From Bacilli bacterium (lineage in GTDB: Bacteria > Bacillota_I > Bacilli_A > RF39 > UBA660), in NCBI GenBank assembly GCA_017409025.1, contig JAFQTN010000002.1, positions 43,967 to 107,966 on the forward strand: a stretch of DNA of 64,000 nt, given 5' to 3'. A model generated the notes under the pieces. That model did not search any database. It was not told the origin of the DNA and was given only the letters and a program-made list of their open reading frames with translations. How positions within the stretch are numbered: position 1 is the stretch's first letter; every line of letters begins with the position of its first letter. Made by a program: the position numbers and the translations under genes. Below, in pieces: positions 4,418-47,827 of the stretch.

Positions 4418-5905
4418 TTATTCCTTATTTATCTTAATATCATATACAGAAGGTCCATATATGATATTCCCATCTATATCAAATCTAGAAGCATGACAAG
4501 GACAATCCCAAGTTTTATCTATATAATTAAATACTAAATTACATTTCATATGAGGACATATATTAGAAACTATATGTTCAATACCTTTAATATCTTTATA
4601 TATACCACATTTCTTTCCATTAACATATTCTATTCTAACATCATCACCATAATAACTCTTATTAGAACTAATTTTATTTAATATATATCTACTACCTACT
4701 TCTATATTATATATAAATATATTCTTTATCTTATCGATAGATAATCCTCTTTTAGGATTAAATAAACCAATATATTTATTATCTTTATTATTTATAATAT
4801 CACTAATAACCATCCCACTAATCGTTCCATTAGTATTCCCCCATTTATTAAATCCAGTTGATATAAACAAATTATTATCTATTTTTCCTATAAAAGGTAA
4901 TCCATCATATGTCATTAAATCATGAGTATGATAAAAATATTCTAAATCTTTACCAAAATATTTCTTATATTCACCACTCAATTCCCTATAATCATCTCTA
5001 ATATCTAAATTAGTAGTAATACTATGATTTCTTCTTCCATATATTAAATAATTATCTATATCCTTATAACCTCTAATAGATATACTTCTCTTTCCCGTAG
5101 AAATCATCTGACTTGAAAGTTCCTTATCAAATTTTGCTGCTCCTATAAAAAATCTATCTACTCTAGTTTTAAAAGGAATAAAAAAAGGAACAATAAACAT
5201 CGGATAATGACAAGCTACTACTACAAATTTACTTCTAATTTTATATCCATCATTTACCTTACTAACATACATATCATTATCCTTATCAACTGATATACAT
5301 CTAGTATTTTCATATATATCTATCTTCTTACTAACTATATTTTTTAAACCTACTAAATATTCATATGGATTAAATACATAACTATCATCCCCCATCAAAG
5401 CATATTTACACGGATATTTTATTGGTAATCTATCTAATAATTTATACTTAATATTATATTTATTATAAAAATTAACTTCATCACTAAAGCTATTATAATC
5501 ATCACCAGTATAACTAAATACATAAGATTTAGTCTTAACTAAATGACAATCTATTTTATTCTTAGTTATAATTTCTTTTACTTTTTTAATCGCATCAAGC
5601 TGACTATCATAATATAATTTAGCAATATCACTATTATAATTTTTACTAAGTCTACTATAGATTAAATCTTGCATCCAAGTAAGTTTACCAGTATTTTTTG
5701 ATGTAGCCCCCATCCCACATATATCTCTTTCAATTAATACTACCTTCTTATCTGAATTCATCAAATTATAAGCAGTACTAAGACCAGCCATTCCTCCACC
5801 TATAATTAATACATCACAATTAATATCTTTATCCAATTTAGACATCTTCTCATTTTTAATATTGGAATTCATCCAAATACTTTTATTTTTCATCTTATTC
5901 ACCAT
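4418..5905 (-). CDS. FAD-dependent oxidoreductase with a C-terminal Rieske [2Fe-2S] domain
   Basis: 495 aa. N-terminal dinucleotide fold DVLIIGGGMAGLSTAY. C-terminal Rieske ligands CPHMKC...(17)...CPCHASRFD. Confidence 0.75.
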   Translation of the reverse strand: MVNKMKNKSIWMNSNIKNEKMSKLDKDINCDVLIIGGGMAGLSTAYNLMNSDKKVVLIERDICGMGATSKNTGKLTWMQDLIYSRLSKNYNSDIAKLYYDSQLDAIKKVKEIITKNKIDCHLVKTKSYVFSYTGDDYNSFSDEVNFYNKYNIKYKLLDRLPIKYPCKYALMGDDSYVFNPYEYLVGLKNIVSKKIDIYENTRCISVDKDNDMYVSKVNDGYKIRSKFVVVACHYPMFIVPFFIPFKTRVDRFFIGAAKFDKELSSQMISTGKRSISIRGYKDIDNYLIYGRRNHSITTNLDIRDDYRELSGEYKKYFGKDLEYFYHTHDLMTYDGLPFIGKIDNNLFISTGFNKWGNTNGTISGMVISDIINNKDNKYIGLFNPKRGLSIDKIKNIFIYNIEVGSRYILNKISSNKSYYGDDVRIEYVNGKKCGIYKDIKGIEHIVSNICPHMKCNLVFNYIDKTWDCPCHASRFDIDGNIIYGPSVYDIKINKE

Positions 5906-23438: not shown

Positions 23439-24878
23439 ATGGTGAATTATATGAATAAAATTATAAATAAAATTAAGAATGAAACAAACAATCTAGATAA
23501 CGTTATATATAGAAAAAAAAGAATTCTATATAAAGATTTACACATTATATATATTGATGCCCTAATAGCATCAGATAAAATTAGTGATTTTGTATTAAGA
23601 AGCCTAAACAGAATCCATATACCTACATATAAAAATATTATTAACAAAATTGCTAATTTTAAATATAAAGAATTAACTACTTATGATGAAATTATCTATT
23701 ATTTAAATAGTGGATTTACCATCCTTTTAGTATCTAAAAATAAATATATTGCATTAGAAACAAGAAGAGATTTATCAAGAGGAGTATCTACTCCAATAAC
23801 AGAAAACACATCTCGTGGACCACTTGATGCATTCACTGAAAATATAGAAATGAATATTGGTCTAATTAAAAGAAGAATTAAAAGTAATGACTTATGGATA
23901 AAAAAATATGTTTTAGGTAAATATACTCAAACTAGTGCAGGATTAATATATATTAAATCTATTGCCAATAAAGATTTAGTAGAAAAAGTTGACACTCTAA
24001 TTAAAAATATTGATATTGACGGAATTATTGGTACAGGTACTATAAGAAATTTAATTGAAAAAGAAAACAAAAACTTTTTCCCTAACATATTAAGTGCAGA
24101 AAAACCATATACAGCAATTAAATATCTTCTACAAGGTAACGTTATAATAATGATCGATAATGATCCATTTGTATTAATTCTTCCATCAACATTAAATGAT
24201 TATTTTATCTCTGAAGAAGATGATTATAATAAAAGTATAAGTGTATCAGTAACAAGAATAGTTAGATATATAACTTTCGCAATAACGCTACTAACACCAG
24301 GTATATATATAGCAATAACTACATATAACCAAGAAATATTACCAACACAACTCTTAACAAGTATTGCAGCCCAAAGAGAAAATGTTCCCTTTTCAACCTT
24401 TGTTGAAGCACTTCTCATGATACTATCATTTGAAATACTAAGAGAAAGTGATTTAAAACTACCAAGTTTTGCTAGTTCTGCCATTTCTATAGTTGGGGCC
24501 CTAATCCTAGGAGAAGCTGCCGTAAGTGCCGGTATTGTATCCCCAATAATGATAATTGTCGTAGCTATAACTTCAATTTCTTCACTAATTTTTGTAGAAC
24601 CACAATTTACAAACGCCCTAAGAATATACCGAATAGGATTTATGATAGGTGGCGTTATCTTTGGAATATATGGAATTCTACTAATGGCAATTCTTTTACT
24701 AATAAATTTAGTTAGCTATGATTTTCTAGGAATACCATACTTATCTCCATTCGCACCACCAATAACTGCTGACTTAAAAGATAGTATTATCAAATTTCCA
24801 ACAATAAAACTTAAAAAAAGAAATCACTTATTAAGTAATAATATAACTAAAAATATAACAGGTGATGAATATGATTAA
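23439..24878 (+). CDS. gerAA: Spore germination receptor subunit A (GerA/GerKA family)
   Basis: 479 aa. GerA-family layout with a soluble N-terminal domain and ~5 C-terminal TM helices. It is first in a gerA-type tricistronic operon and overlaps the start of the next gene. Confidence 0.8.
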   Translation: MVNYMNKIINKIKNETNNLDNVIYRKKRILYKDLHIIYIDALIASDKISDFVLRSLNRIHIPTYKNIINKIANFKYKELTTYDEIIYYLNSGFTILLVSKNKYIALETRRDLSRGVSTPITENTSRGPLDAFTENIEMNIGLIKRRIKSNDLWIKKYVLGKYTQTSAGLIYIKSIANKDLVEKVDTLIKNIDIDGIIGTGTIRNLIEKENKNFFPNILSAEKPYTAIKYLLQGNVIIMIDNDPFVLILPSTLNDYFISEEDDYNKSISVSVTRIVRYITFAITLLTPGIYIAITTYNQEILPTQLLTSIAAQRENVPFSTFVEALLMILSFEILRESDLKLPSFASSAISIVGALILGEAAVSAGIVSPIMIIVVAITSISSLIFVEPQFTNALRIYRIGFMIGGVIFGIYGILLMAILLLINLVSYDFLGIPYLSPFAPPITADLKDSIIKFPTIKLKKRNHLLSNNITKNITGDEYD

Positions 24879-26028
24879 AAAAATATTACTAATCCTTATA
24901 ATATTTCTATTAACGGGTTGTTATGATCACAAAGAATTAAATACAATTGCTATCATGACAGCTACTGAAATAAACAAAATTAATAATGAATATATCATAA
25001 ATGTACAAGTAGTAAACCCTCAATCATCAGATAAAACCGTAAACGTAGGTTCCCCATTTTTCGTATACGAAGGAAAAGGAATAACTTTACACGAAGCATA
25101 TCGTAATATAAAAACACAATCATCTAGATTCTTATATCCTAATCATATGCAATTACTTATTGTAAACGAAAAACTCGCTAAAGAAGATATAAGTGAAATA
25201 ATTGATTTTTACTTAAGAATTCCTGATACAAGAACTGAGTTTAATGTCTTAATAGGAAAATCAGATAATATCCTAAATATAACCACACCTATAGATGATA
25301 TATCAGCAATCAGTATATTAGAAACAATGAGGACCAATAATAAATATTTAGGTATCACTAATCTAGTAACATTTAATGATTTTGCTAATATGAATCTAAA
25401 TAAAAATTTAGAAATAATTCTTCCATCTATTGAAACAGTAGACTACACTGAAGAATCTACCACTATAGAAAATACAGAAAAAACAGAAATAAAAAGTCTA
25501 TATAAACTAGGCAATCTTGCCATATTTAAAGATAATAAACTATTAGATTACTTAGACAAAGATGAAAGCATTACTTATAATCTAATAAAAAATAAAGTTG
25601 CTTCAATATTAATAACCAAAGAATGTGAAAAAGATAAATATATAACAGCTGAAGCAACAGAAATAAAATCAGAAATTAGTACTAAAAATAAAGAAATAAA
25701 TATTAACGTGAAAATGTCAGGGAACATTAATGAAAATATGTGTAATATTAAATTAAATAATGAAAAAGAACTAAAAAAACTAGAAAAAGAATTATCAAAA
25801 TATATCAAAGATAAAATTGAAACCAGTATAAATAATATAAGAAAAAACTATAATTCAGACATATTTGGGTTTTTAGATTTAATATATAAAAAAGATTATA
25901 AAACTTACAAAGAAATAAAAGATACATGGTATGATGGAGAATTTCAAAATATAAAAATAAATATTAAATCATCTATAGATATTATTGGTAAAGGTAATGT
26001 CCAGGAGGGTAATAATGAAAAAAATTAG
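24862..26028 (+). CDS. gerAC: Spore germination receptor subunit C, a lipoprotein
   Basis: 388 aa. Signal peptide with a lipobox LLTGC, and GerAC-family features. Confidence 0.75.
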   Translation: MMNMIKKILLILIIFLLTGCYDHKELNTIAIMTATEINKINNEYIINVQVVNPQSSDKTVNVGSPFFVYEGKGITLHEAYRNIKTQSSRFLYPNHMQLLIVNEKLAKEDISEIIDFYLRIPDTRTEFNVLIGKSDNILNITTPIDDISAISILETMRTNNKYLGITNLVTFNDFANMNLNKNLEIILPSIETVDYTEESTTIENTEKTEIKSLYKLGNLAIFKDNKLLDYLDKDESITYNLIKNKVASILITKECEKDKYITAEATEIKSEISTKNKEININVKMSGNINENMCNIKLNNEKELKKLEKELSKYIKDKIETSINNIRKNYNSDIFGFLDLIYKKDYKTYKEIKDTWYDGEFQNIKINIKSSIDIIGKGNVQEGNNEKN

Positions 26029-27103
26029 TTATTTAGAAATTACATCTCTAGTAATCATTCAAACAGTAACAACCTTCTTTGGTATATCAGTATCAATTTT
26101 AAAAGAAGGATCAGGAATTAACTCATGGTTATCTGCATTATTATCATATGTAATAGGTATAATACCACTTATAATGATTATTTATATCTCTAACTATAAA
26201 AAAGATTTAAAATTAAATGATAAAATAAATAATCTATTTGGTAAAAAAATAGGATTCTGTATCAATATACTCCTATCTTTATTATTAGTATCATTAGCAA
26301 TTACTCTACTATATAATATTAATAATTTTATCCTATCACAATTCTTATACAGAACTCCATTCATAGTAAGTTGTTCCCTATTCATGTTATTAATTATCTA
26401 TAATGCCAATAAAGGAATAAACGTTATATCAAAAGTAGCTATGCTATTATTAATATTAAATATTTTTCTATACACTATAAATATATCATCATTAGTACAA
26501 TATATTGATATCTCTAACTTCTATCCACTATTAAAAGTAAATACTAATAACATAATACCTACAGCCATAAAAATATCAAGTATTAACTATCTCCCACTAA
26601 TAACCATACTAGTAATTCCTAAAGATAAATTAACTACTCCTAAAAAATATAATAAATCTCTAATTATTGGATACATCATCGGAGCTATTATCTCATTTGG
26701 ATTAGTAATAACAACATTTGGAGTATTAGGAATAGACTTAGTAAATACTTTTGAATATTCAGAATATATTGTCTTAAGAAAAGTAAAATTATTAGGCTTC
26801 TTAGAAAGAATTGAAAACATTATTTCACTACAATGGATAATTGGATCATATATCTATTTAACAGTTCTAGTCTATACTATGACAAAAAGCATCTCTATCA
26901 AATCTAAAAAAATAAATACCTGGATAACTACTATTATTGGTATATCTCTAATAGTTATTACCCTATTAATATTTAAAGATAATACTATTTTTGACAATTA
27001 CATTAGAAATATCTTCCCATACATTATCAGTGGAATAACTTTAATCTATATCTTATTAATAATAAAAATATTTATATCTAAAACTAATTTATCAAAAACA
27101 TAG
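25985..27103 (+). CDS. gerAB: Spore germination receptor subunit B (a membrane protein of the APC-transporter superfamily)
   Basis: 372 aa with ~10 TM helices. It follows the C subunit in A-C-B order. The true start is probably MKKISYLEIT near 26015. Confidence 0.75.
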   Translation: MVKVMSRRVIMKKISYLEITSLVIIQTVTTFFGISVSILKEGSGINSWLSALLSYVIGIIPLIMIIYISNYKKDLKLNDKINNLFGKKIGFCINILLSLLLVSLAITLLYNINNFILSQFLYRTPFIVSCSLFMLLIIYNANKGINVISKVAMLLLILNIFLYTINISSLVQYIDISNFYPLLKVNTNNIIPTAIKISSINYLPLITILVIPKDKLTTPKKYNKSLIIGYIIGAIISFGLVITTFGVLGIDLVNTFEYSEYIVLRKVKLLGFLERIENIISLQWIIGSYIYLTVLVYTMTKSISIKSKKINTWITTIIGISLIVITLLIFKDNTIFDNYIRNIFPYIISGITLIYILLIIKIFISKTNLSKT

Positions 27104-27144
27104 ACTTTATAAAATTAGTTTGATAAAATTAAATTGGTGGTAAT

Positions 27145-27882
27145 ATGTGTTTTAGAAAAAAAGCTATTTTAATGATTCATGGTTTCGTAGGTGGTTGTTA
27201 CGATTTTGGTTCTTTTCATAATGAACTACAATTATATAAAAAATTTGACGTATATACATACACTCTACCTGCTCATGAAAAATTTATTGTCAATGATGTA
27301 AAGTATACTGAATGGATTAAGGAGTCCATTAAACAAATAGAATTCTTAATTAATAATGGATATAAAGAAATATATTTAATCGGTCACAGTATGGGAGGCG
27401 TAATTGCAGCCTATCTTGCCAGTCATTACAAAGAAGTAAAAAAGCTAGTACTAGCTGCACCAGCATTTAGATATTTCTATTTTAAAGATGGTAAAGTCGA
27501 TATAAAAAGTTTAAATACTACTCTTAAAAATATAAGTGAAATATTAAAAGGAGCAGATACTGAACAAGTAGTATCTAGAATCTTAAAAACACCAATTTCA
27601 ACAATGATTGAATTTACTAAACTAGTTAATCATTGTCAAAATTGTGTAAACTATATCACCTGTCCTACTCTAACCATTCGTGGAATGGATGATATCGTAG
27701 TTCCAAATGAAGGAGTAGAATTTGTTCATAATGGAATAAAATCTAAATCAAATACTTTAGTAAATATTAAAAAATTAAATCACGAATGTTTTACTCACAA
27801 AAAAAATAATGAAGTAAAAAATATTATTAAAGAATTTCTTGTTAAAAGGCCTAAAAATAAAAAAGAAATTATAGAACTTTAA
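27145..27882 (+). CDS. Alpha/beta-hydrolase fold esterase/lipase
   Basis: 245 aa. Nucleophile elbow GHSMGG within IYLIGHSMGGVIAAYLAS. Confidence 0.7.
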   Translation: MCFRKKAILMIHGFVGGCYDFGSFHNELQLYKKFDVYTYTLPAHEKFIVNDVKYTEWIKESIKQIEFLINNGYKEIYLIGHSMGGVIAAYLASHYKEVKKLVLAAPAFRYFYFKDGKVDIKSLNTTLKNISEILKGADTEQVVSRILKTPISTMIEFTKLVNHCQNCVNYITCPTLTIRGMDDIVVPNEGVEFVHNGIKSKSNTLVNIKKLNHECFTHKKNNEVKNIIKEFLVKRPKNKKEIIEL

Positions 27883-28304
27883 TGTAATTGTCTACATACC
27901 CCAGGATCTGGTTTATAAAAACAATGATTTTTATAACTACCAGCTAATTGTTGATCCCACCAAGTAGCAGAACAGGATGTTCCTGTTGACGGTGCATAAA
28001 ACCATAATGAATTAGTAGCTGGAAAATAATATTCTCCTCGCAAAACTCTTTTTGCCAGGAGTTTTTCTTTTTCCGTAGGATTTCCATAAAACAAAGAACT
28101 ATTAGTACCAGAAAAACCACCAGGACTCTGATAAATCATTTTATAAACCGTTGTAATATCTTTAAATGTTAAACAATCAGCAATAACCCTATTAACTCCT
28201 ACATTTCCGACCATAAGCATCCCTAAATTACCCTCACCTAATGCTTCAGCTCTCATAAGTCTAGCTAAAAGTTCCATTTCTTTCTCAGTATATTTAACTA
28301 TCAT
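27879..28304 (-). CDS. Cell-wall hydrolase, SleB-like catalytic domain (Hydrolase_2 family)
   Basis: 141 aa. LLARLMRAEALGEGNLGMLMVGNVGVNRV...YQSPGGFSG...LWFYAP...WW are conserved blocks of the SleB/CwlJ catalytic domain. There is no N-terminal peptidoglycan-binding domain. Confidence 0.7.
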   Translation of the reverse strand: MIVKYTEKEMELLARLMRAEALGEGNLGMLMVGNVGVNRVIADCLTFKDITTVYKMIYQSPGGFSGTNSSLFYGNPTEKEKLLAKRVLRGEYYFPATNSLWFYAPSTGTSCSATWWDQQLAGSYKNHCFYKPDPGVCRQLH

Positions 28305-31109: not shown

Positions 31110-31244
31110 AAAATAATATATTAATTTACTGTTTTCAATGTAAATTAATAGAAATAAAACAATAACATATACAAATCGTGATTATTGTGATATACTTAAA
31201 TAAATTAGTAATCATTAAATTTGAAAGGAAAATAAATAATTGAA

Positions 31245-31862
31245 CAAAACTTATTAGAAAAATTTATAAATAAATTTGTTAATGATGTAATTTTAGAAGA
31301 AGGCCACCCAAATTCACACATATATGAATACTTTAAACAAATAATTAGAGAACCTGAATACGAATGGCTTCGTGATATATATATGCAAAAAAAAGAAGCA
31401 ATTAAAAAAATTGACACAAACAATCCAAATTTTTTAAAAGTTCAAAGAGAACTTGATGAAAAATATTGGTTTGACCCATCAGCTTATTCATATGCAATTA
31501 AAGAATATAAATTAAAAATTATTGAGTTAATAAAAATAACAGAACAAGAATTGTTAGAACAAATTGTAAATAAAATTGTTGATGATGTAATTTTAGGTGA
31601 AGGGCATACAAATGCACATGCATATGAATACTTTAAACAAATAATTAGAGAACCTGAATACGAATGACTTCGTGATATATATATGCAAAAAAAAGAAGCA
31701 ATTAAAAATTTTGATGAAAACGATCCAGAATTCTTAAAAGCTCAAAAAGATTTTTATGAAAAAATGGGATTTGATTATAGTGCTTATTCATATGCAATTA
31801 CAGAATACAAATTAAAAAGAACAAAAAGTTCAATATATACCCCAAAAAAGAAAAAGAGATAA
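31245..31862 (+). pseudogene. Repeat-containing gene, probably disrupted. It holds two 300-bp tandem copies that each encode a ~100-aa unit, has an in-frame TGA at ~31666 where copy 1 has TGG (Trp), and has no canonical start codon upstream of copy 1.
   Basis: Copy 1 encodes ...EEGHPNSHIYEYFKQIIREPEYEWLRDIYMQKKEAIKKIDTNNPNFLKVQRELDEKYWFDPSAYSYAIKEYKLKI... Copy 2 encodes ...GEGHTNAHAYEYFKQIIREPEYE*LRDIYMQKKEAIKNFDENDPEFLKAQKDFYEKMGFDYSAYSYAITEYKLKRTKSSIYTPKKKKR*. The first ~130 nt of each copy are nearly identical. Confidence 0.45.
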
Positions 31863-36140: not shown

Positions 36141-36170
36141 CAAGAGTTATTCAAAGCTCTTGTTTTTTTA
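36141..36170 (+). terminator. Rho-independent terminator after the NUDIX gene
   Basis: CAAGAGTT-attcaa-AGCTCTTG followed by TTTTTTTAT. Confidence 0.6.
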
Positions 36171-36177
36171 TAAAAAA

Positions 36178-36240
36178 AACTTTACGTTATAGGGCACTTT
36201 GTGTTATAATACCAATTAACCAAAAAAGGGGGAAAAATAT
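36178..36240 (+). promoter_or_regulatory. Promoter and leader cassette, copy A. It has an extended -10 TGTTATAAT, a -35-like TTTACG at 18-nt spacing, and an RBS AAGGGGGAAAAAT.
   Basis: ACTTTACGTTATAGGGCACTTTGTGTTATAATACCAATTAACCAAAAAAGGGGGAAAAAT. It matches copy B at 38266..38328 except for 2 positions. Confidence 0.55.
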
Positions 36241-36243
36241 TAT

Positions 36244-37923
36244 ATGGAAAATTTTATAGTAAAATTTAAAAAAGATTTAAAAGGATTTCAATCATCTCGT
36301 AAAAAAGTAATTAAAGAATGTGAGCGTGAATTATCAATATTAAACAAAATACTTAATAACGACATCTCTGTCCTTGAACACGCAGATGTTATTAATGTTG
36401 GTAATAGTTTATTTATGTCAGCAACAATTGCCAAAATAAAGCTACCTATCGCAACACTAGTAGACAAAAAGGCAAGAAAAAAAGACAAACAAAAAGCTAA
36501 AGAGGATTTAAAAGAAACATATGATAGCTTACTAAGCTTTACTGAATATTTAAAAACAGAATATTATACTACTCAAAATATTATTAACGCTTTTGAAAAC
36601 GATAAAATTAAAGATCCAATAAATAGTATTAATGTATTATTTAATCAAATATCTCTTACAACAATAACTTTAGAAGAAGCAGATAAAATTCTTGGTATGG
36701 CTATAGCATTTAATAGTAGATATGCAAAAAGAAATAAAAATCATCAAATTGAAAATATTGATGCAATCCATGAATTAGCAAGAGACTATTATAATGAAGA
36801 CGGATCATTTAAATATGTAGAGGATTTATTAACTTATGAAAGAAAAATAAATGAACTTATTAAAAATCAACTTGATATAATGGTATTTATTCATAAAATA
36901 TTATCATTTAATCAAATGTATACAGCAGAAGATTTAATAAACCTACGTTTCGAATATAATAAAAGATTTAGACATCAACAACCATTAGAAATTTTTAGTA
37001 CAACAGAAATGCCTTTAGAAGAAAATTATTCAATTCCTGAAAAAGTTAGAAAAGCATTACAAGAATTAAAAAAATATTATAAAAATGGTTCTATTATTAC
37101 TATCCCTAATGATTTAGAAAAATTCTACAAATTATTAGAAGAAACTAATTTAGATGAACAAGAAAAGAAATATATTATAAATTTAATTAATATTGAAATA
37201 TCTAAAAACAGAAACAAAATAATAGATAAATATTTATCTACTGAAGAAAAAGATGCATATAATAATGCAATTAAATTACTTAATAAATTTACATATTCTA
37301 ACGCTGATTCATATGCACTAAAACAATATATTGAAGAATTACAAACTATATTAGAATTTTTAGAAACAGAACAAGAAGAAGAAAACAAAGAATACTTGTT
37401 AAATGAAATAGCAACTATAATAGAACAATTAATTATAATATGTAATCGTTATAAAATAGATAATGGAAAATCTTCAAACAGATTAATATTCCTTACATCA
37501 AAAAATGGAATCCCATTTATTGAAGAAGATATAAAATCTCTTGATTCTACATATGAAAAAGCAATAATATCATTAATTAATAAAATTAGCCCTGAAAATC
37601 AATCACACTTTAGAAAAATATTAAATAATGAACCATTACCATATCATATGCATGAAGTTATATCACCAAGAGCCCATGTAGCATTTATAGAAATAGAAAC
37701 TGGTATTTATATCGTAATAGGTGCTAATATTCCAAGAAATGGATATAAAGAATTAATTAATAGATTGCTTGTTAATACAAAAGAAATTGAAAGAATTGAA
37801 AATCTTATTAAAAATCCTGATATGAAAAATCAATTATTAAGAGATAATGAACAATATTTAAAATTATCTGAAGAACAAAAAACAACACTAACTAAAAAGA
37901 AAACAAATGAGCAAAACACATAA
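36244..37923 (+). CDS. Hypothetical, predominantly alpha-helical protein expressed from cassette copy A
   Basis: 559 aa. The start is ATGGAA, the same as the gene downstream of copy B. No recognised catalytic motif. Confidence 0.5.
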   Translation: MENFIVKFKKDLKGFQSSRKKVIKECERELSILNKILNNDISVLEHADVINVGNSLFMSATIAKIKLPIATLVDKKARKKDKQKAKEDLKETYDSLLSFTEYLKTEYYTTQNIINAFENDKIKDPINSINVLFNQISLTTITLEEADKILGMAIAFNSRYAKRNKNHQIENIDAIHELARDYYNEDGSFKYVEDLLTYERKINELIKNQLDIMVFIHKILSFNQMYTAEDLINLRFEYNKRFRHQQPLEIFSTTEMPLEENYSIPEKVRKALQELKKYYKNGSIITIPNDLEKFYKLLEETNLDEQEKKYIINLINIEISKNRNKIIDKYLSTEEKDAYNNAIKLLNKFTYSNADSYALKQYIEELQTILEFLETEQEEENKEYLLNEIATIIEQLIIICNRYKIDNGKSSNRLIFLTSKNGIPFIEEDIKSLDSTYEKAIISLINKISPENQSHFRKILNNEPLPYHMHEVISPRAHVAFIEIETGIYIVIGANIPRNGYKELINRLLVNTKEIERIENLIKNPDMKNQLLRDNEQYLKLSEEQKTTLTKKKTNEQNT

Positions 37924-37941
37924 ATGAACTATGTGTTTTTT
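37914..37941. terminator. Bidirectional hairpin terminator between the convergent 36244(+) and XRE(-) genes
   Basis: AAACACATA-aatgaac-TATGTGTTT with an A-run on the left and a T-run on the right. Confidence 0.55.
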
Positions 37942-37942
37942 A

Positions 37943-38206
37943 TTATTTTATCAATTCTTTGTTTAAATCAGCTTCAAGAGGAATAAATAATTCTAAAACA
38001 TCAACATCCAAAGCTAATGCTATTTTCTGTATTGTATCAAGTGAAAACTGCTTGGTACAACCACTTTTAGTTTCTATTTTCTTTAAATAATCATAACTAA
38101 TCCCACTCATCAAAGAAAGCTTAACCTGTGTCCATCCTTTTAGTTTTCTTTGTTTTTTTATATTTTGAGCCACTATATAATATAAATTATTACCCATGTA
38201 AATCAA
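37943..38206 (-). CDS. XRE-family helix-turn-helix transcriptional regulator
   Basis: 87 aa. QRKLKGWTQVKLSLMSGISYDYLKKIETKS is a Cro/C1-type HTH. It is divergent from the gene at 38329. Confidence 0.75.
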   Translation of the reverse strand: MIYMGNNLYYIVAQNIKKQRKLKGWTQVKLSLMSGISYDYLKKIETKSGCTKQFSLDTIQKIALALDVDVLELFIPLEADLNKELIK

Positions 38207-38265
38207 ATCCTCTAATTTTTTTAAACAAATATCATATAATTATTCTCTCAAAAATATAAAAGAAA

Positions 38266-38328
38266 TACTTTACGTCATAGGGCACTTTATGTTATAATAC
38301 CAATTAACCAAAAAAGGGGGAAAAATTT
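38266..38328 (+). promoter_or_regulatory. Promoter and leader cassette, copy B (same elements as copy A)
   Basis: ACTTTACGTCATAGGGCACTTTATGTTATAATACCAATTAACCAAAAAAGGGGGAAAAAT, immediately upstream of ATGGAAG at 38329. Confidence 0.55.
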
Positions 38329-39357
38329 ATGGAAGTTTATGGATTTAATCTTGATGACTTTAAAATATTAGAAACATTATTACAAATATCTACTGAAATT
38401 AGTAATATTTATGATGAATTATGTGAATTAGAAATTAAAAATCAAAAAGACAGTAAAGAATACAGGGAATTATTAACTAAATTACACATATTAATTAAAA
38501 AAGAAAATATTGAATATCAAAAAAAGCAATTTACTTATGACGATTGCATGAAATACTTAAGATTGTTAGAATCAAAAACGTCTATTCCAGGAATGGATAA
38601 TAGAATTACTACTTCATTAAAACATTATGAAAACAGAATTATAAGAAGAATAATGATTAACATATTAAATATATTAGATAAAAACAAAGATTTTCATCAA
38701 AAAGTTATTGATAATGGATTAGCTAATGCAATTTCAAATATTATAGAAAACCTAAAAACTGAAGATCTTGTCAAAAGTGTAGGAAATTCTGCTCAGATTC
38801 AAACAGCATTAGATAATGATATACATAGTATGTTCCTATCTATTTTAGAAGAATCAATTTCATACAAAAATAATGAAAAATACAGAAATGAACTAATACA
38901 AGCAAAATATTGTATCCTATATACACATAAAAATATGGAATCAATGTTTATACATAGTAGTTTTAATATACCTGATGAAGTATATACTAGTTCTAAAATG
39001 ATTAATCAATTACTTAATCAAGCAGAAATGGCATATAGATTTATAAAATTTATGAAACTTAAATCTGAAGCTAGACAAGATATAAATGTTCTATTAACCC
39101 TTAACGATTCTGAATATGAAAAACATAATATTTTCTTTAGTTCTATCATAATTACTTGTCATATAAGAGCATTATTATCATTAATGGAAGACAGAGATGT
39201 AAATGACTTTAATCAAGAAATTCATGATATATTAGAAAGTCCAAAATACCTAGAAAAACATCAAAATGATAGAATCAGTGAAAGTATTGTAATCAATAGT
39301 TTTAAATATTTTAAAAACGATAAAGCTAAAGCACGCATTCTATCAACAAAAGGTTAA
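38329..39357 (+). CDS. Hypothetical alpha-helical protein expressed from cassette copy B
   Basis: 342 aa with no recognised motif. Confidence 0.5.
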   Translation: MEVYGFNLDDFKILETLLQISTEISNIYDELCELEIKNQKDSKEYRELLTKLHILIKKENIEYQKKQFTYDDCMKYLRLLESKTSIPGMDNRITTSLKHYENRIIRRIMINILNILDKNKDFHQKVIDNGLANAISNIIENLKTEDLVKSVGNSAQIQTALDNDIHSMFLSILEESISYKNNEKYRNELIQAKYCILYTHKNMESMFIHSSFNIPDEVYTSSKMINQLLNQAEMAYRFIKFMKLKSEARQDINVLLTLNDSEYEKHNIFFSSIIITCHIRALLSLMEDRDVNDFNQEIHDILESPKYLEKHQNDRISESIVINSFKYFKNDKAKARILSTKG

Positions 39358-39365
39358 AAACTTAT

Positions 39366-39404
39366 AAAAAAGAGATTTAATTTTAATAAATCTCTTTATT
39401 TTTA
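39366..39404. terminator. Bidirectional hairpin terminator
   Basis: AAAGAGATTTA-attttaa-TAAATCTCTTT followed by ATTTTTAT. It lies between the convergent genes at 38329(+) and 39383(-). Confidence 0.6.
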
Positions 39405-39933: not shown

Positions 39934-41118
39934 TTATACTTCTTTTACAATTAATATCTGTCCTATAGAAAGAATATTATTTTCTAAATTATTTAATCTT
40001 TTAATTTTATCAACTGTAGTATTAAATTCTCTAGCAATAGAATATATCGTATCACCTTTCTTTACTACATAAGTCGTATCATCTTCTATAGGTATTATCA
40101 ATTTTTGACCAACATTAAGTAGATTATTAGTAAGTTCATTATATTCCTTTAATTTATTTACTGATATATCAAACTTTTTAGCTATCGAATATAGTGTATC
40201 CCCCTTTTCTACTACATAAGTATTTACTAAAGATAAGCCACTAGGTACATTAAGCAATTGACCTACTGCTAAATCATTATTAGTTAAATTATTAATTGTT
40301 TTAAGTTCATTAACACTAATATTATATTTTTTTGCTATAGAATATAGTGTATCTCCTGCTTTTACCTGATATAATTCAGTATCTCCTATATCAACAACTT
40401 TTGTTGGTATTTTTAATATTTGACCTATTTTCAACACATTTGTTGATAAATTATTAATTTCTTTTAATTCAGAAACCGAAGTATCTAATTTATTAGCTAT
40501 TGAATATAATGTATCTCCTGCAACTACCTTATATGTATCAGTAGTAACTGTCTCTGGTGCCGTATATGGAACATTTTTATATTCTAACACAGACTTAATA
40601 ACAGCCTCAGCTAACTCTTTATAATTATCTTTAAGAAAAGCTACATCAGAAGCATTATCAATAAAACCATACTCTACTATAACAGGTTCAGTATTTCCAG
40701 TATTTCTATGCATAAAATAATAATCTTTAGTAGAATTACTAGGTAATCTTCTCTGATATACACGTCTTGTATTTTGACCTGTATCACCAATATTATTTAA
40801 TATAGTATTTGCTAATTTAGAATCATTTCTAAGTGCATATATTATTTCAGCACCATCGCCGCCTCCCGCATTCAAGTGATTAGATATAACCACCACATCA
40901 GGGTCATTTCCAAAAAAAGAAAGCACTCTATTAACTCTAGCAGTAGGCTCCAACGTAACATCACTATCTCTTGTCAAATAAACTGGAACTCCAAGTTCCC
41001 TAAACCTATCATACATATATCTACTAATTTGTAAATTATAATCTTTTTCTAATATATCACTCCCAACTGCACCACTATCAACACCACCATGTCCTGGATC
41101 TATCACAACTTTTGCCAT
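39934..41118 (-). CDS. N-acetylmuramoyl-L-alanine amidase (Amidase_3) with four C-terminal LysM repeats
   Basis: 394 aa. N-terminal MAKVVIDPGHGGVDSGAVG, then four repeats of the form Y.V..GDTLYSIA.K......L...N.L.....L.V(G)Q.L..P. Confidence 0.85.
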   Translation of the reverse strand: MAKVVIDPGHGGVDSGAVGSDILEKDYNLQISRYMYDRFRELGVPVYLTRDSDVTLEPTARVNRVLSFFGNDPDVVVISNHLNAGGGDGAEIIYALRNDSKLANTILNNIGDTGQNTRRVYQRRLPSNSTKDYYFMHRNTGNTEPVIVEYGFIDNASDVAFLKDNYKELAEAVIKSVLEYKNVPYTAPETVTTDTYKVVAGDTLYSIANKLDTSVSELKEINNLSTNVLKIGQILKIPTKVVDIGDTELYQVKAGDTLYSIAKKYNISVNELKTINNLTNNDLAVGQLLNVPSGLSLVNTYVVEKGDTLYSIAKKFDISVNKLKEYNELTNNLLNVGQKLIIPIEDDTTYVVKKGDTIYSIAREFNTTVDKIKRLNNLENNILSIGQILIVKEV

Positions 41119-46891: not shown

Positions 46892-47827
46892 CTACATATC
46901 AATTATATCCATATAATTTTTAGGAACACCCATTGTATCTAATATCTTCTCAACAGGTATTGAATCTATCATTCCATCTAACTTTTCAAGTTCATATTCA
47001 AATTCTTTTAACATAAGTCTAAATTCATCTGCTTCAAGCAAACATTTAAACATTATTATTACTGCAAATATATCATTCTTACCATATATATATTCTTCAT
47101 CCATTTTAAAAATATTAAGTTTCTTATGATATTCAGTATCAGGAATCTGCCTTTCAGTTTTATGATCAAAAACAATATCTTCATGTGCACATAAATTTCT
47201 ATAATTAGACAAAATTGGTAAAAAGTCCTCTAAATACTCAACAGAAACGCCAAATATTGATGCTATTTCTAACTTATCTTCATCTTTTAATATAGAATAT
47301 AACTCACATAATATACCAAAAGATAAAACTTTAACTAATATCCATAAAGGAATGTATCCATAATTTCTAGTATAATGCATCGTAGCGCTATGTTTCGTAG
47401 CATTGATTCTTATTTGTCTTTTCATCTTATCAATTACATCTTTAACTCTTCTTCTTTTCTCAGGATTCTGAGTAAAGTTCTTATAGTTTAAATAATCTCT
47501 TTCTTTATAACCATATTTCTTAGATAATTGATAAGAAATAATTGATTTTAATCTATTCTCTATAATTAAAAGATTTTTAAAAAATATATTTCTAGAATAT
47601 CTATCAAATAAAAATAAAGAATATAATTCATCAAAAGTAGCCCCAGTAACAAAAGTTCTATCCGAAGCAGAATTCATAAATAAATGTCTATAGCCATTCA
47701 AAAAGAAATAATTCTCCTTAAGTAATATATTCTCTGCCTTATTAACATCATCAATTATTAACCCTTTATTCCTTAATATCTCTACTTGTTGACTAATCGT
47801 TTTAAAATCCTTAATCACTAGTATCAC
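46892..47827 (-). CDS. Abortive-infection protein of the Abi_2 family (AbiD/AbiF-like) with a C-terminal HEPN motif
   Basis: 311 aa. N-terminal FKTISQQVEILRNKGLIIDDVNKAENILLKENYFFLNGYRHLF is the hallmark Abi_2 N-terminus. RNLCAH (Rx4H) is at the C-terminal domain. Confidence 0.7.
   Translation of the reverse strand: MILVIKDFKTISQQVEILRNKGLIIDDVNKAENILLKENYFFLNGYRHLFMNSASDRTFVTGATFDELYSLFLFDRYSRNIFFKNLLIIENRLKSIISYQLSKKYGYKERDYLNYKNFTQNPEKRRRVKDVIDKMKRQIRINATKHSATMHYTRNYGYIPLWILVKVLSFGILCELYSILKDEDKLEIASIFGVSVEYLEDFLPILSNYRNLCAHEDIVFDHKTERQIPDTEYHKKLNIFKMDEEYIYGKNDIFAVIIMFKCLLEADEFRLMLKEFEYELEKLDGMIDSIPVEKILDTMGVPKNYMDIIDM

Follow-up and report, generated by a model that had tools for sequence, protein, structure and literature searches.

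Twin promoters with probable operators for a minimal XRE-family regulator at a conserved chromosomal gene pair of low-GC Bacilli

Cro/C1-type (XRE-family) repressors are well known to act at operators that overlap divergent promoters, examples being lambda CI at OR, Xre of Bacillus subtilis PBSX and ImmR of ICEBs1. Here we describe a locus in a 64,000-nt stretch of DNA (hereafter the window) from a Bacilli bacterium metagenome-assembled genome (MAG; GenBank contig JAFQTN010000002.1), in which two uncharacterised genes, A and B, are each preceded by a near-identical promoter and leader cassette and a gene coding for an 84-aa XRE-family helix-turn-helix (HTH) protein lies between them. From sequence comparisons across related loci we consider it probable, though short of certain, that the two cassettes are twin promoters of long standing, P_A and P_B, each carrying an operator for this XRE protein, which probably represses both genes.

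Of the systems described so far, this locus is functionally closest to the Cro/C1-type repressors with promoter-overlapping operators. As in those cases, the gene for a small HTH_3 protein stands divergent to a controlled promoter, and the proposed operator extends into the -35 and spacer region of that promoter and adjoins the promoter of the regulator gene; a second copy of the proposed operator would control a second unit in trans. Unlike the classical examples, the locus lies outside any phage or mobile element, the regulator is a single 84-aa domain without a dimerisation, sensor or cleavage domain, the window-type operator has little dyad symmetry, and the targets are two uncharacterised chromosomal genes; neither an anti-repressor nor a protease partner came to light. 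Likeness to the controller (C) proteins of restriction–modification (R-M) systems was also considered, since these are HTH proteins of ~80 aa whose C boxes overlap a -35 region. In PADLOC, the XRE protein gave solely matches to generic HTH models, including 'Control_protein' at E 5.5e-7. However, no restriction or methylase genes were found within 10 kb on either side of the locus and the box is no C-box palindrome; the resemblance is one of generic HTH_3 similarity.

In order to define the repeat, the window was searched with the 60-mer ACTTTACGTYATAGGGCACTTTRTGTTATAATACCAATTAACCAAAAAAGGGGGAAAAAT. Exactly two copies were found by pattern search, both on the plus strand and identical at 58 of 60 positions, the differences being T/C at position 10 and G/A at position 23, while 100 shuffles of the sequence (the window is ~25% G+C) gave none. 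With a repeat finder, the match grew to 70 nt (93% identity), from 36169 and 38257, the added bases being an A-rich run. Copy 1 ends 5 nt and copy 2 ends 2 nt before the respective start codon. The initial annotation had reported a near-identical 58-nt promoter and leader stretch before two genes, with an extended -10 element, a leader, a G-rich ribosome-binding site (RBS) and an ATGGAA start in each copy. The repeat and all of these elements were recovered by the pattern search, the promoter scan and the sequence itself; only the positions, which were off by 1–2 nt, and the length needed correction, the true match being 58/60.

Each cassette can be read as a sigma-A-type promoter followed by a short unstructured leader and a GGGGG RBS. 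The spacer between -35 and -10 is 18 nt in both copies, and both promoters agree with the consensus at 10 of 12 positions and carry the TG extension, from which we would expect them to be intrinsically strong. The A-rich leaders, of ~26–28 nt, show no more folding stability than shuffled sequence (z +0.7 for copy 1 and +1.5 for copy 2) and gave no Rfam match at E<=1. Since the leaders are unstructured and unmatched in Rfam, the conserved part is not an RNA element, and a riboswitch or leader RNA was rejected on these grounds and on the short length of the untranslated region. An alternative-sigma (sporulation) promoter, which the nearby gerA and SleB-like genes had brought to mind, was set aside by inspection, the elements fitting sigma-A (TTTACG, 18 nt, TGnTATAAT).

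We then compared the promoters across orthologous loci, using as the core the 32 nt from ACTTTACG to TATAAT. The A and B promoters of the window agree at 30/32 positions. In locus L011, which has the same layout as the window (A, convergent XRE gene, divergent B), the corresponding pair agrees at 31/32; between the two loci, the A promoters agree at 31/32 and the B promoters at 30/32. In both the window species and L011, the A copy reads TTTGTG and the B copy TTTATG. Because the same copy-specific difference and the core identity recur in L011, the two promoters are old orthologous lineages and not the product of a recent copying event. Both promoters are also present, in decayed form, at the orthologous genes in L001, L038 and L040.

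These observations bear on the alternative that the identity of the cassettes reflects a recent promoter duplication, a 'mobile promoter' or gene conversion, and thus recency and not a shared operator. Putative mobile promoters form >4,000 families, 68% of them pairs, with a mean identity of 92% and a mean length of 66 nt (Matus-Garcia, Nijveen, van Passel, Nucleic Acids Res 2012, PMC3488235). The window pair fits their operational definition (>=50 nt at >=80% identity upstream of non-homologous genes; here 58/60), and the flanking genes are non-homologous on both sides (A versus B, and the upstream NUDIX gene versus the XRE gene). Unlike putative mobile promoters, the window copies are present at orthologous genes in relatives and are tied to a regulator gene: they stand at the same genes in L011 and, decayed, in the other relatives, and so predate the separation of species whose proteins differ by 40–55%, and a core identity of 30–31/32 between species is not explicable by recency within one genome. 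In addition, no transposase, inverted repeats or further cassette copies were found within the window. The recent duplication that had been offered as one explanation of the repeat is therefore not borne out for the core, given that A in L011 is only 60% identical and yet has the same promoters with the same G/A difference.

The leader is a different matter. After the -10 element, the window pair is identical over 28/28 contiguous nt, whereas the L011 pair agrees at 24/34 and the L001 pair at 19/29, so that leader identity is confined to this genome. The window leader looks like a mixture of the A-type start (ACCAATTAAC) and the B-type end (CAAAAAAGGGGGAAA) of the L001 leaders, and a general leader consensus, ACCAAAAAGGGGGAAAT, is visible across loci. 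Local gene conversion, or both leaders standing at an ancestral or shared selected consensus, would each be a plausible cause. Recent copying could account for the leader at most, and as an explanation of the pair as a whole we regard it as unlikely. The window pair is better described as a conserved small regulon than as recent rewiring, recent homogenisation being plausible for the leader only.

Since part of the core is held more tightly in some loci than in others, its distribution was compared with that of the XRE gene, presence or absence being scored within each fetched locus. The motif ATAGRRCAC was found in 5/5 A or B promoters of loci with the XRE gene but in 1/13 promoters of loci without it (Fisher p = 7e-4, a value that ignores shared ancestry). 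In the loci lacking the XRE gene, the -35 region (ACTTTAC) and CTTTRTGnTATAAT are kept, and the central ATAGGGCAC is replaced by unrelated sequence, for example ATAAGAAAT, ATAATTTCT, ATAAAATCT or CCACCACCA. The sole promoter with the motif but without the gene is the A promoter of L001, ATAGAGCAC, which has the box with one change, the syntenic place being devoid of an XRE gene. Of the related loci, L001 is closest to that of the window (A 79% identical), and its B core is down to 24–25/32, a pattern that looks like decay after loss of the regulator.

The proposed box, TTTACGnnATAGGGCACTTT, covers ~20 bp of the -35 and spacer region in both promoters; at <=2 mismatches, the 20-bp pattern has 2 matches in the window compared with 0.03 expected. 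Independent occurrences were sought beside a more distant relative of the regulator, for which ten loci (L041–L050) were sampled as the contexts of one family member. This member, from a human-gut organism of 25% G+C, is a 76-aa XRE protein that is 74% identical to that of the window and was seen in 959 collection blocks. Its gene (5001–5231) is divergent from an unrelated 388-aa gene, whose product has a zinc-ribbon, a membrane segment and an HExxH motif and which is followed by genes for a 59-aa zinc-ribbon protein and a P-type cation ATPase. The box pattern TTTACGnnATAGnnCACTTT (search form TTTACGNNATAGNNCACTTT, with 16 specified bases) has an exact match, TTTACGATATAGTACACTTT, in the 146-nt intergenic region in 9/10 loci (4913–4932, minus strand), and L042 has a one-base variant with CGC for CAC. 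The distance from the box to the XRE start codon measures 68 nt (L041 type), 71 nt (window) and 77 nt (L011). Compared to the window, the L041-type box lies 11 bp, about one helical turn, farther upstream of the extended -10 element of the target. In 2.9 million viral contigs, the box gave 6 matches, none of them near an XRE gene, which is the chance level. These comparisons establish at the sequence level both the link between the box and the XRE gene and its recurrence beside a distant XRE orthologue. They support the first proposal that ATAGGGCAC is part of a shared operator; of the original suggestion of strict co-regulation from one operator or recent duplication, the former thus gains support through the shared box and its tie to the XRE gene, and the latter does not hold for the core. 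On the 3' side of the XRE gene, the L041–L050 loci vary by strain, carrying either a Mob_Pre and serine-recombinase element or an ABC transporter, which suggests an integration hot spot.

Over residues 13–70, the XRE protein scores 42.2 bits with Pfam HTH_3 (PF01381; cut-off 23 bits; E 8.1e-11), and its gene lies on the minus strand between A and B, divergent from B, as the initial annotation had stated. The open reading frame (ORF) extends over 37943–38206, but the ATG at 38197, giving 84 aa, is the more likely start since AGAGGA sits 10 nt upstream of it. Compared to the window protein, its orthologue has 82% identity in L011 and 77% in L009; the corresponding values in these loci are 60% and 52% for A and 45% and 43% for B. 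The regulator is thus, by these identities, far more conserved than its proposed targets (77–82% versus 43–60%). At E<=1e-15, 448 homologues were found; the best 120 of these are 70–100% identical to the window protein and 76–105 aa long, mostly 76–87 aa. The HTH is near-invariant among 15 aligned family members. XRE proteins encoded beside A or B have a C-terminal tail of ~10 aa (TPLE..L.KE..K), which is missing from the 76-aa family majority. The two groups also differ in the recognition-helix region, which reads SGVSYDYL in XRE proteins beside A or B and SNISVDYL in that majority, in step with a difference at the box centre, ATAGGGCAC versus ATAGTACAC. The parallel changes may represent co-variation of protein and operator.

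We therefore propose the following arrangement, in which each step is to be read as conditional. P_A and P_B would be two old, orthologous sigma-A-type promoters of the A–B pair, each with a ~20-bp operator in the -35 and spacer region. The 84-aa XRE protein would bind the box at both promoters and, occupying the DNA from about -35 to -14, would exclude RNA polymerase, so that A and B would most likely be repressed in parallel. Repression is favoured over activation because the promoters are near consensus in loci without the XRE gene and so have no need for an activator. The protein would probably also affect its own divergent promoter, whose -35 region adjoins the box at P_B, making autoregulation plausible. 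As it has no sensor domain, derepression might come about via a partner, proteolysis or dilution. Selection for promoter and operator function together would keep the 32-nt core near-identical.

Several observations weigh against this proposal. An XRE gene scored as absent from a fetched locus could lie elsewhere in the genome. Loci that lack the XRE gene still conserve ACTTTAC and CTTTRTGTTATAAT, so that plain promoter conservation accounts for some of the identity. The A promoter of L001 holds the box with no XRE gene nearby, and the XRE-bearing loci represent three species and one distant lineage, which are not phylogenetically independent. The L041-type box lies farther upstream, where activation is also possible. 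By hand count, the window-type box has 2–3 of 8 complementary pairs in its 16-bp core compared with 6 of 8 in the L041 type, and an XRE dimer usually prefers a palindromic operator, so that simple binding of a dimer to a palindrome is disfavoured at the window-type box. Finally, a search for the cassette core in 185,579 species-representative genomes gave no match and hence no further boxes from the rest of the genome; since the core itself is unmatched there, this MAG or its species is absent from that collection.

From these points it could be argued that the box is not an XRE site at all, but serves another factor or is a preferred spacer or sigma contact, the association with the XRE gene being a phylogenetic coincidence. 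The lack of dyad symmetry, the restriction of box plus XRE gene beside A or B to just three related species, the persistence of much of the core without the gene and the L001 A promoter are all consistent with such a view. It does not, however, account for an exact match at 16 specified bases in the 146-nt gap between XRE gene and target of a distant organism, at a similar distance from the XRE start codon, nor for the chance-level occurrence of the pattern in viral contigs away from any XRE gene, nor for the decay of the central motif exactly where the XRE gene is missing. We consider coincidence improbable and retain the XRE protein as the probable ligand of the box. We also rejected a reading of the copies as direct repeats or att sites that flank an inserted A and XRE gene: in L001 both promoters are present and the XRE gene is absent, and the layout of the window recurs in L011 at 60% protein identity.

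A relaxed form of the core pattern gave 18 metagenome matches and 1 viral match, all lacking the ACTTTACG..ATAGGGCAC surroundings and any XRE gene close by; we take these to be chance extended -10 promoters. Four low-GC metagenome contigs (L013–L015 and L029; e.g. L013 4598–4618) contain a promoter-like CTATCATATAGAACACTTTATGATATAAT that resembles the cassette centre and -10 element. They have neither ACTTTACG nor an XRE gene in the fetched DNA, and CTATCATATAGAACACTTTATGATATAAT is probably an unrelated extended -10 promoter.

The coordinates of the locus are collected in Table 1. Three hairpins bracket the transcription units, in agreement with the terminators noted at the outset on both sides. 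The hairpin at the 5' edge of the gene A unit has a folding energy of -8.7 kcal/mol (z -3.15) and that downstream of gene B -10.2 kcal/mol (z -2.3). The hairpin between the convergent A and XRE genes (-9.2 kcal/mol, z -3.4) is a probable bidirectional terminator of both. Upstream of the XRE gene, in the interval that separates it from gene B, the promoter scan gave a minus-strand candidate XRE promoter at 38260..38231; the sequence TTCTCAAAAA in this interval is conserved among loci with the XRE gene.

Table 1. Positions of the features of the A–XRE–B locus within the window
Feature	Position	Strand	Remark
Intrinsic terminator of upstream NUDIX gene, 5' edge of gene A unit	36141..36169 (hairpin 36141-36162)	+	8-bp stem then T-run
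Cassette copy 1 (promoter, leader and RBS of gene A)	36179..36238	+	pattern search, repeat finder, promoter scan
Copy 1 -35 TTTACG	36181-36186	+	
Copy 1 proposed XRE box TTTACGTTATAGGGCACTTT	36181-36200	+	
Copy 1 extended -10 TGTTATAAT (TGnTATAAT)	36202-36210	+	
Copy 1 RBS GGGGG	36228-36232	+	11 nt before ATGGAA
Gene A, 559 aa, uncharacterised multi-domain protein	36244..37923	+	
Hairpin between A-run and T-run, common to convergent A and XRE gene	37913..37939	.	10-bp stem
XRE-family (Cro/C1-type) HTH regulator, 84 aa, no sensor domain	37943..38197	-	Pfam HTH_3
XRE–gene B intergenic region	38198..38266	-	XRE RBS AGAGGA and candidate XRE promoter
Cassette copy 2 (promoter, leader and RBS of gene B)	38267..38326	+	pattern search, repeat finder, promoter scan
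Copy 2 -35 TTTACG	38269-38274	+	
Copy 2 proposed XRE box TTTACGTCATAGGGCACTTT	38269-38288	+	
Copy 2 extended -10 TGTTATAAT	38290-38298	+	
Copy 2 RBS GGGGG	38316-38320	+	8 nt before ATGGAA
Gene B, 342 aa, uncharacterised all-alpha protein	38329..39357	+	
Gene B terminator, hairpin then U-run	39369..39397	+	11-bp stem

The closest database proteins to A and B have the locus tags IJE89_01245 and IJE89_01255 (a 'Bacilli bacterium' MAG). For A, 34 close homologues were found, and a profile search of 1.84 billion representatives at E<=1e-3 gave 144 clusters at 50% identity. No significant match to A was obtained in Pfam, PADLOC, PHROGs, NCBIfam or PDB sequence profiles, and ten long or distant members of the family had no Pfam domain. 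Distant relatives (26–45% identity; L030–L035) come from uncultured Tenericutes UMGS1613, Bacillota SIG200, Candidatus Ventrenecus species and an uncultured Bacilli MAG, and the A family therefore reaches beyond the clade with the cassette; Bacillota SIG200 has two partial A copies at contig ends. An AlphaFold2 (AF2) model of A (pLDDT 82.8, pTM 0.44) has a long helical and coiled-coil N-terminal part, a disordered linker (246–261), a helical middle and a C-terminal alpha/beta domain (~410–535). With Foldseek, this last domain aligned to HigB of Streptococcus pneumoniae HigBA (6af3/6af4) at probability 1.0 and a TM-score of 0.59–0.61 on the target, with a root-mean-square deviation of ~4 A and E of 0.05–0.6, and it also aligned to RelE (3bpq_B). 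A distant relative of A, P0177, matched Pfam Gp49 (PF05973) at E 1.5e-4 with 22.1 bits, under the cut-off of 23.9. A itself matched neither the Pfam Gp49 nor the HigB models, and a profile of its C-terminal domain alone reached no PDB HigB sequence. On these data, a HigB/RelE-like fold is probable for the C-terminal domain. Four proteins of 135–185 aa (P0120, P0156, P0103 and P0161) align solely to this domain and may be stand-alone versions of it or short-contig fragments; if genuine, they would have the size of classical RelE/HigB toxins.

Gene B has 16 homologues. Its AF2 model (pLDDT 88.6, pTM 0.88) is all-alpha and had no meaningful fold match in the PDB or BFVD (best E 1.4 and 0.6, respectively). 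Searches of Pfam, PADLOC, PHROGs, NCBIfam and PDB sequences with B gave nothing significant, the best PADLOC match being Cmr5 at E 0.16. A and B are not similar to each other (BLASTP E 0.46; hhalign profile-profile probability 0.06%), as had been remarked at first sight, and hidden paralogy of the two was ruled out on the same values.

The predicted fold of A raised the possibility of a toxin–antitoxin-like or anti-phage module, with A as a large HigB/RelE-type RNase toxin, the XRE protein as a HigA-like antitoxin and repressor, and B as an accessory or sensor. HigA antitoxins are XRE-type HTH proteins, so that an XRE-type gene adjoining a protein with a C-terminal domain of this fold recalls HigB/HigA, which pairs a Gp49-family toxin of the RelE superfamily with an XRE-type antitoxin. 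The near-threshold Gp49 match of the distant A relative, the C-terminal tail on the XRE proteins linked to A or B and an Abi_2 gene 7.5 kb away could be counted in the same direction. Unlike HigB, however, A is 559 aa long with an N-terminal region of ~400 aa, and the two genes are convergent and form no operon: the XRE gene and A converge in the window and in L011 and diverge in L009, and the two are never co-transcribed. Each gene also occurs alone. No XRE gene adjoins A in 8 or more distinct loci (among L001, L002, L005, L008, L010 and L037–L040), and the XRE family, far broader than that of A, stands beside unrelated genes. The analogy with HigBA fails on this orientation, on the lack of obligatory co-occurrence and on the independent distribution of the XRE family. 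Together with the weakness of the fold match (E 0.05) and the points on database matches and gene neighbourhood given below, this makes a toxin–antitoxin or anti-phage module quite unlikely, and we return to the reading of the locus as a small regulon.

B follows A in the window and in L001, L005/L006, L009, L010, L011, L038, L039 and L040, whereas A occurs without B in L002–L004, L008 and L037; overall, B adjoins A in 9 of 12 distinct loci. From this synteny, A–B appears as a conserved chromosomal gene pair of related low-GC, spore-forming Bacilli MAGs. In L009 the XRE gene is divergent from A, B follows A after a 15-nt gap as in an operon, and a single box is found, before A. The initial annotation had further seen in the layout a compact inducible module, such as an anti-phage or stress system, and had suggested that co-occurrence of the three genes and a defence island be looked for. 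An anti-phage or mobile module finds no support. A and B occur without the XRE gene in most related loci, so that the three genes form no obligate trio; neither has relatives in IMG/VR, phage or plasmid records or matches in PADLOC, PHROGs, Pfam or NCBIfam; and the neighbourhood is no variable island but is syntenic, of housekeeping and sporulation-like character and common to the relatives. From searches of these collections we rejected the idea that A, B or the XRE gene came from phages, plasmids or IMG/VR sequences. Upstream neighbours in the window and its relatives include a gerA operon, an alpha/beta hydrolase, a SleB-like hydrolase, a PCC-domain gene, MYG1, Sua5 and NUDIX genes, and downstream neighbours are a deaminase, a LysM amidase or TM2/DUF2752 genes.

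Some further features of the surroundings were recorded. The window contains at 23439–28304 a complete gerA-type germination operon (GerA, GerAC and spore permease) with the alpha/beta hydrolase and SleB-like hydrolase genes, from which it follows that the organism is a spore-former and that the A–B pair is syntenic with germination genes; the gerA block is also found upstream of A in L005, L008 and L038. The sole defence-type gene seen near the locus, at 46892–47827 on the minus strand, codes for the Abi_2 (AbiD/AbiF-like) protein mentioned above (Pfam E 2e-39) and lies between genes for HtrA and a YlqF/RsgA-type GTPase. A 300-nt tandem duplication at 31229–31774 (246 nt at 83% identity) yields paralogous ORFs at 31383–31667 (94 aa) and 31683–31862 (59 aa), both of which start with MQKKEAIK and have no family match; the second looks truncated. 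The N-acetylmuramoyl-L-alanine amidase encoded at 39934–41118 (minus strand) has four LysM repeats, visible as DNA repeats of 90–138 nt at 64–71% identity, and a LysM protein or amidase is a recurrent downstream neighbour of the A–B cluster in relatives. In L002 (10353–12011) and L005 (10539–12128), a large serine recombinase (Resolvase, Recombinase, Zn_ribbon_recom) is encoded ~3 kb 3' of the cluster of A (sometimes B), TM2/DUF2752 and LysM genes, followed in L005 by an HNH/SRA gene, and may mark the edge of an integrated element.

A more far-reaching interpretation can be offered as speculation, and we think it rather unlikely in this full form. A and B would make up an undescribed two-protein system of the core genome, in which A combines a ~400-aa helical sensor or scaffold with a HigB/RelE-type, possibly ribosome-dependent, RNase, B is its partner, and a dedicated, unusually well conserved and minimal XRE repressor silences both through the twin operators. 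Such a system could be a chromosomal stress, dormancy, sporulation-linked or conflict module, and the 76–87-aa XRE family with its 20-bp box would then constitute an uncharacterised class of regulators in low-GC gut Bacilli.

Without that extension, the repeat is real and meaningful but ordinary: a small regulon with twin operator-bearing promoters and not a new type of system. If the proposal is correct, the locus would be a natural two-promoter regulon under one minimal XRE-type regulator, and would provide a testable 20-bp operator for a widespread, conserved and uncharacterised family of small regulators in uncultured low-GC gut Bacilli. It would also give a regulatory handle on two conserved protein families, A with its HigB/RelE-like domain and B, which is unmatched among solved and viral structures. 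More generally, near-identical promoter pairs need not be recent duplications.

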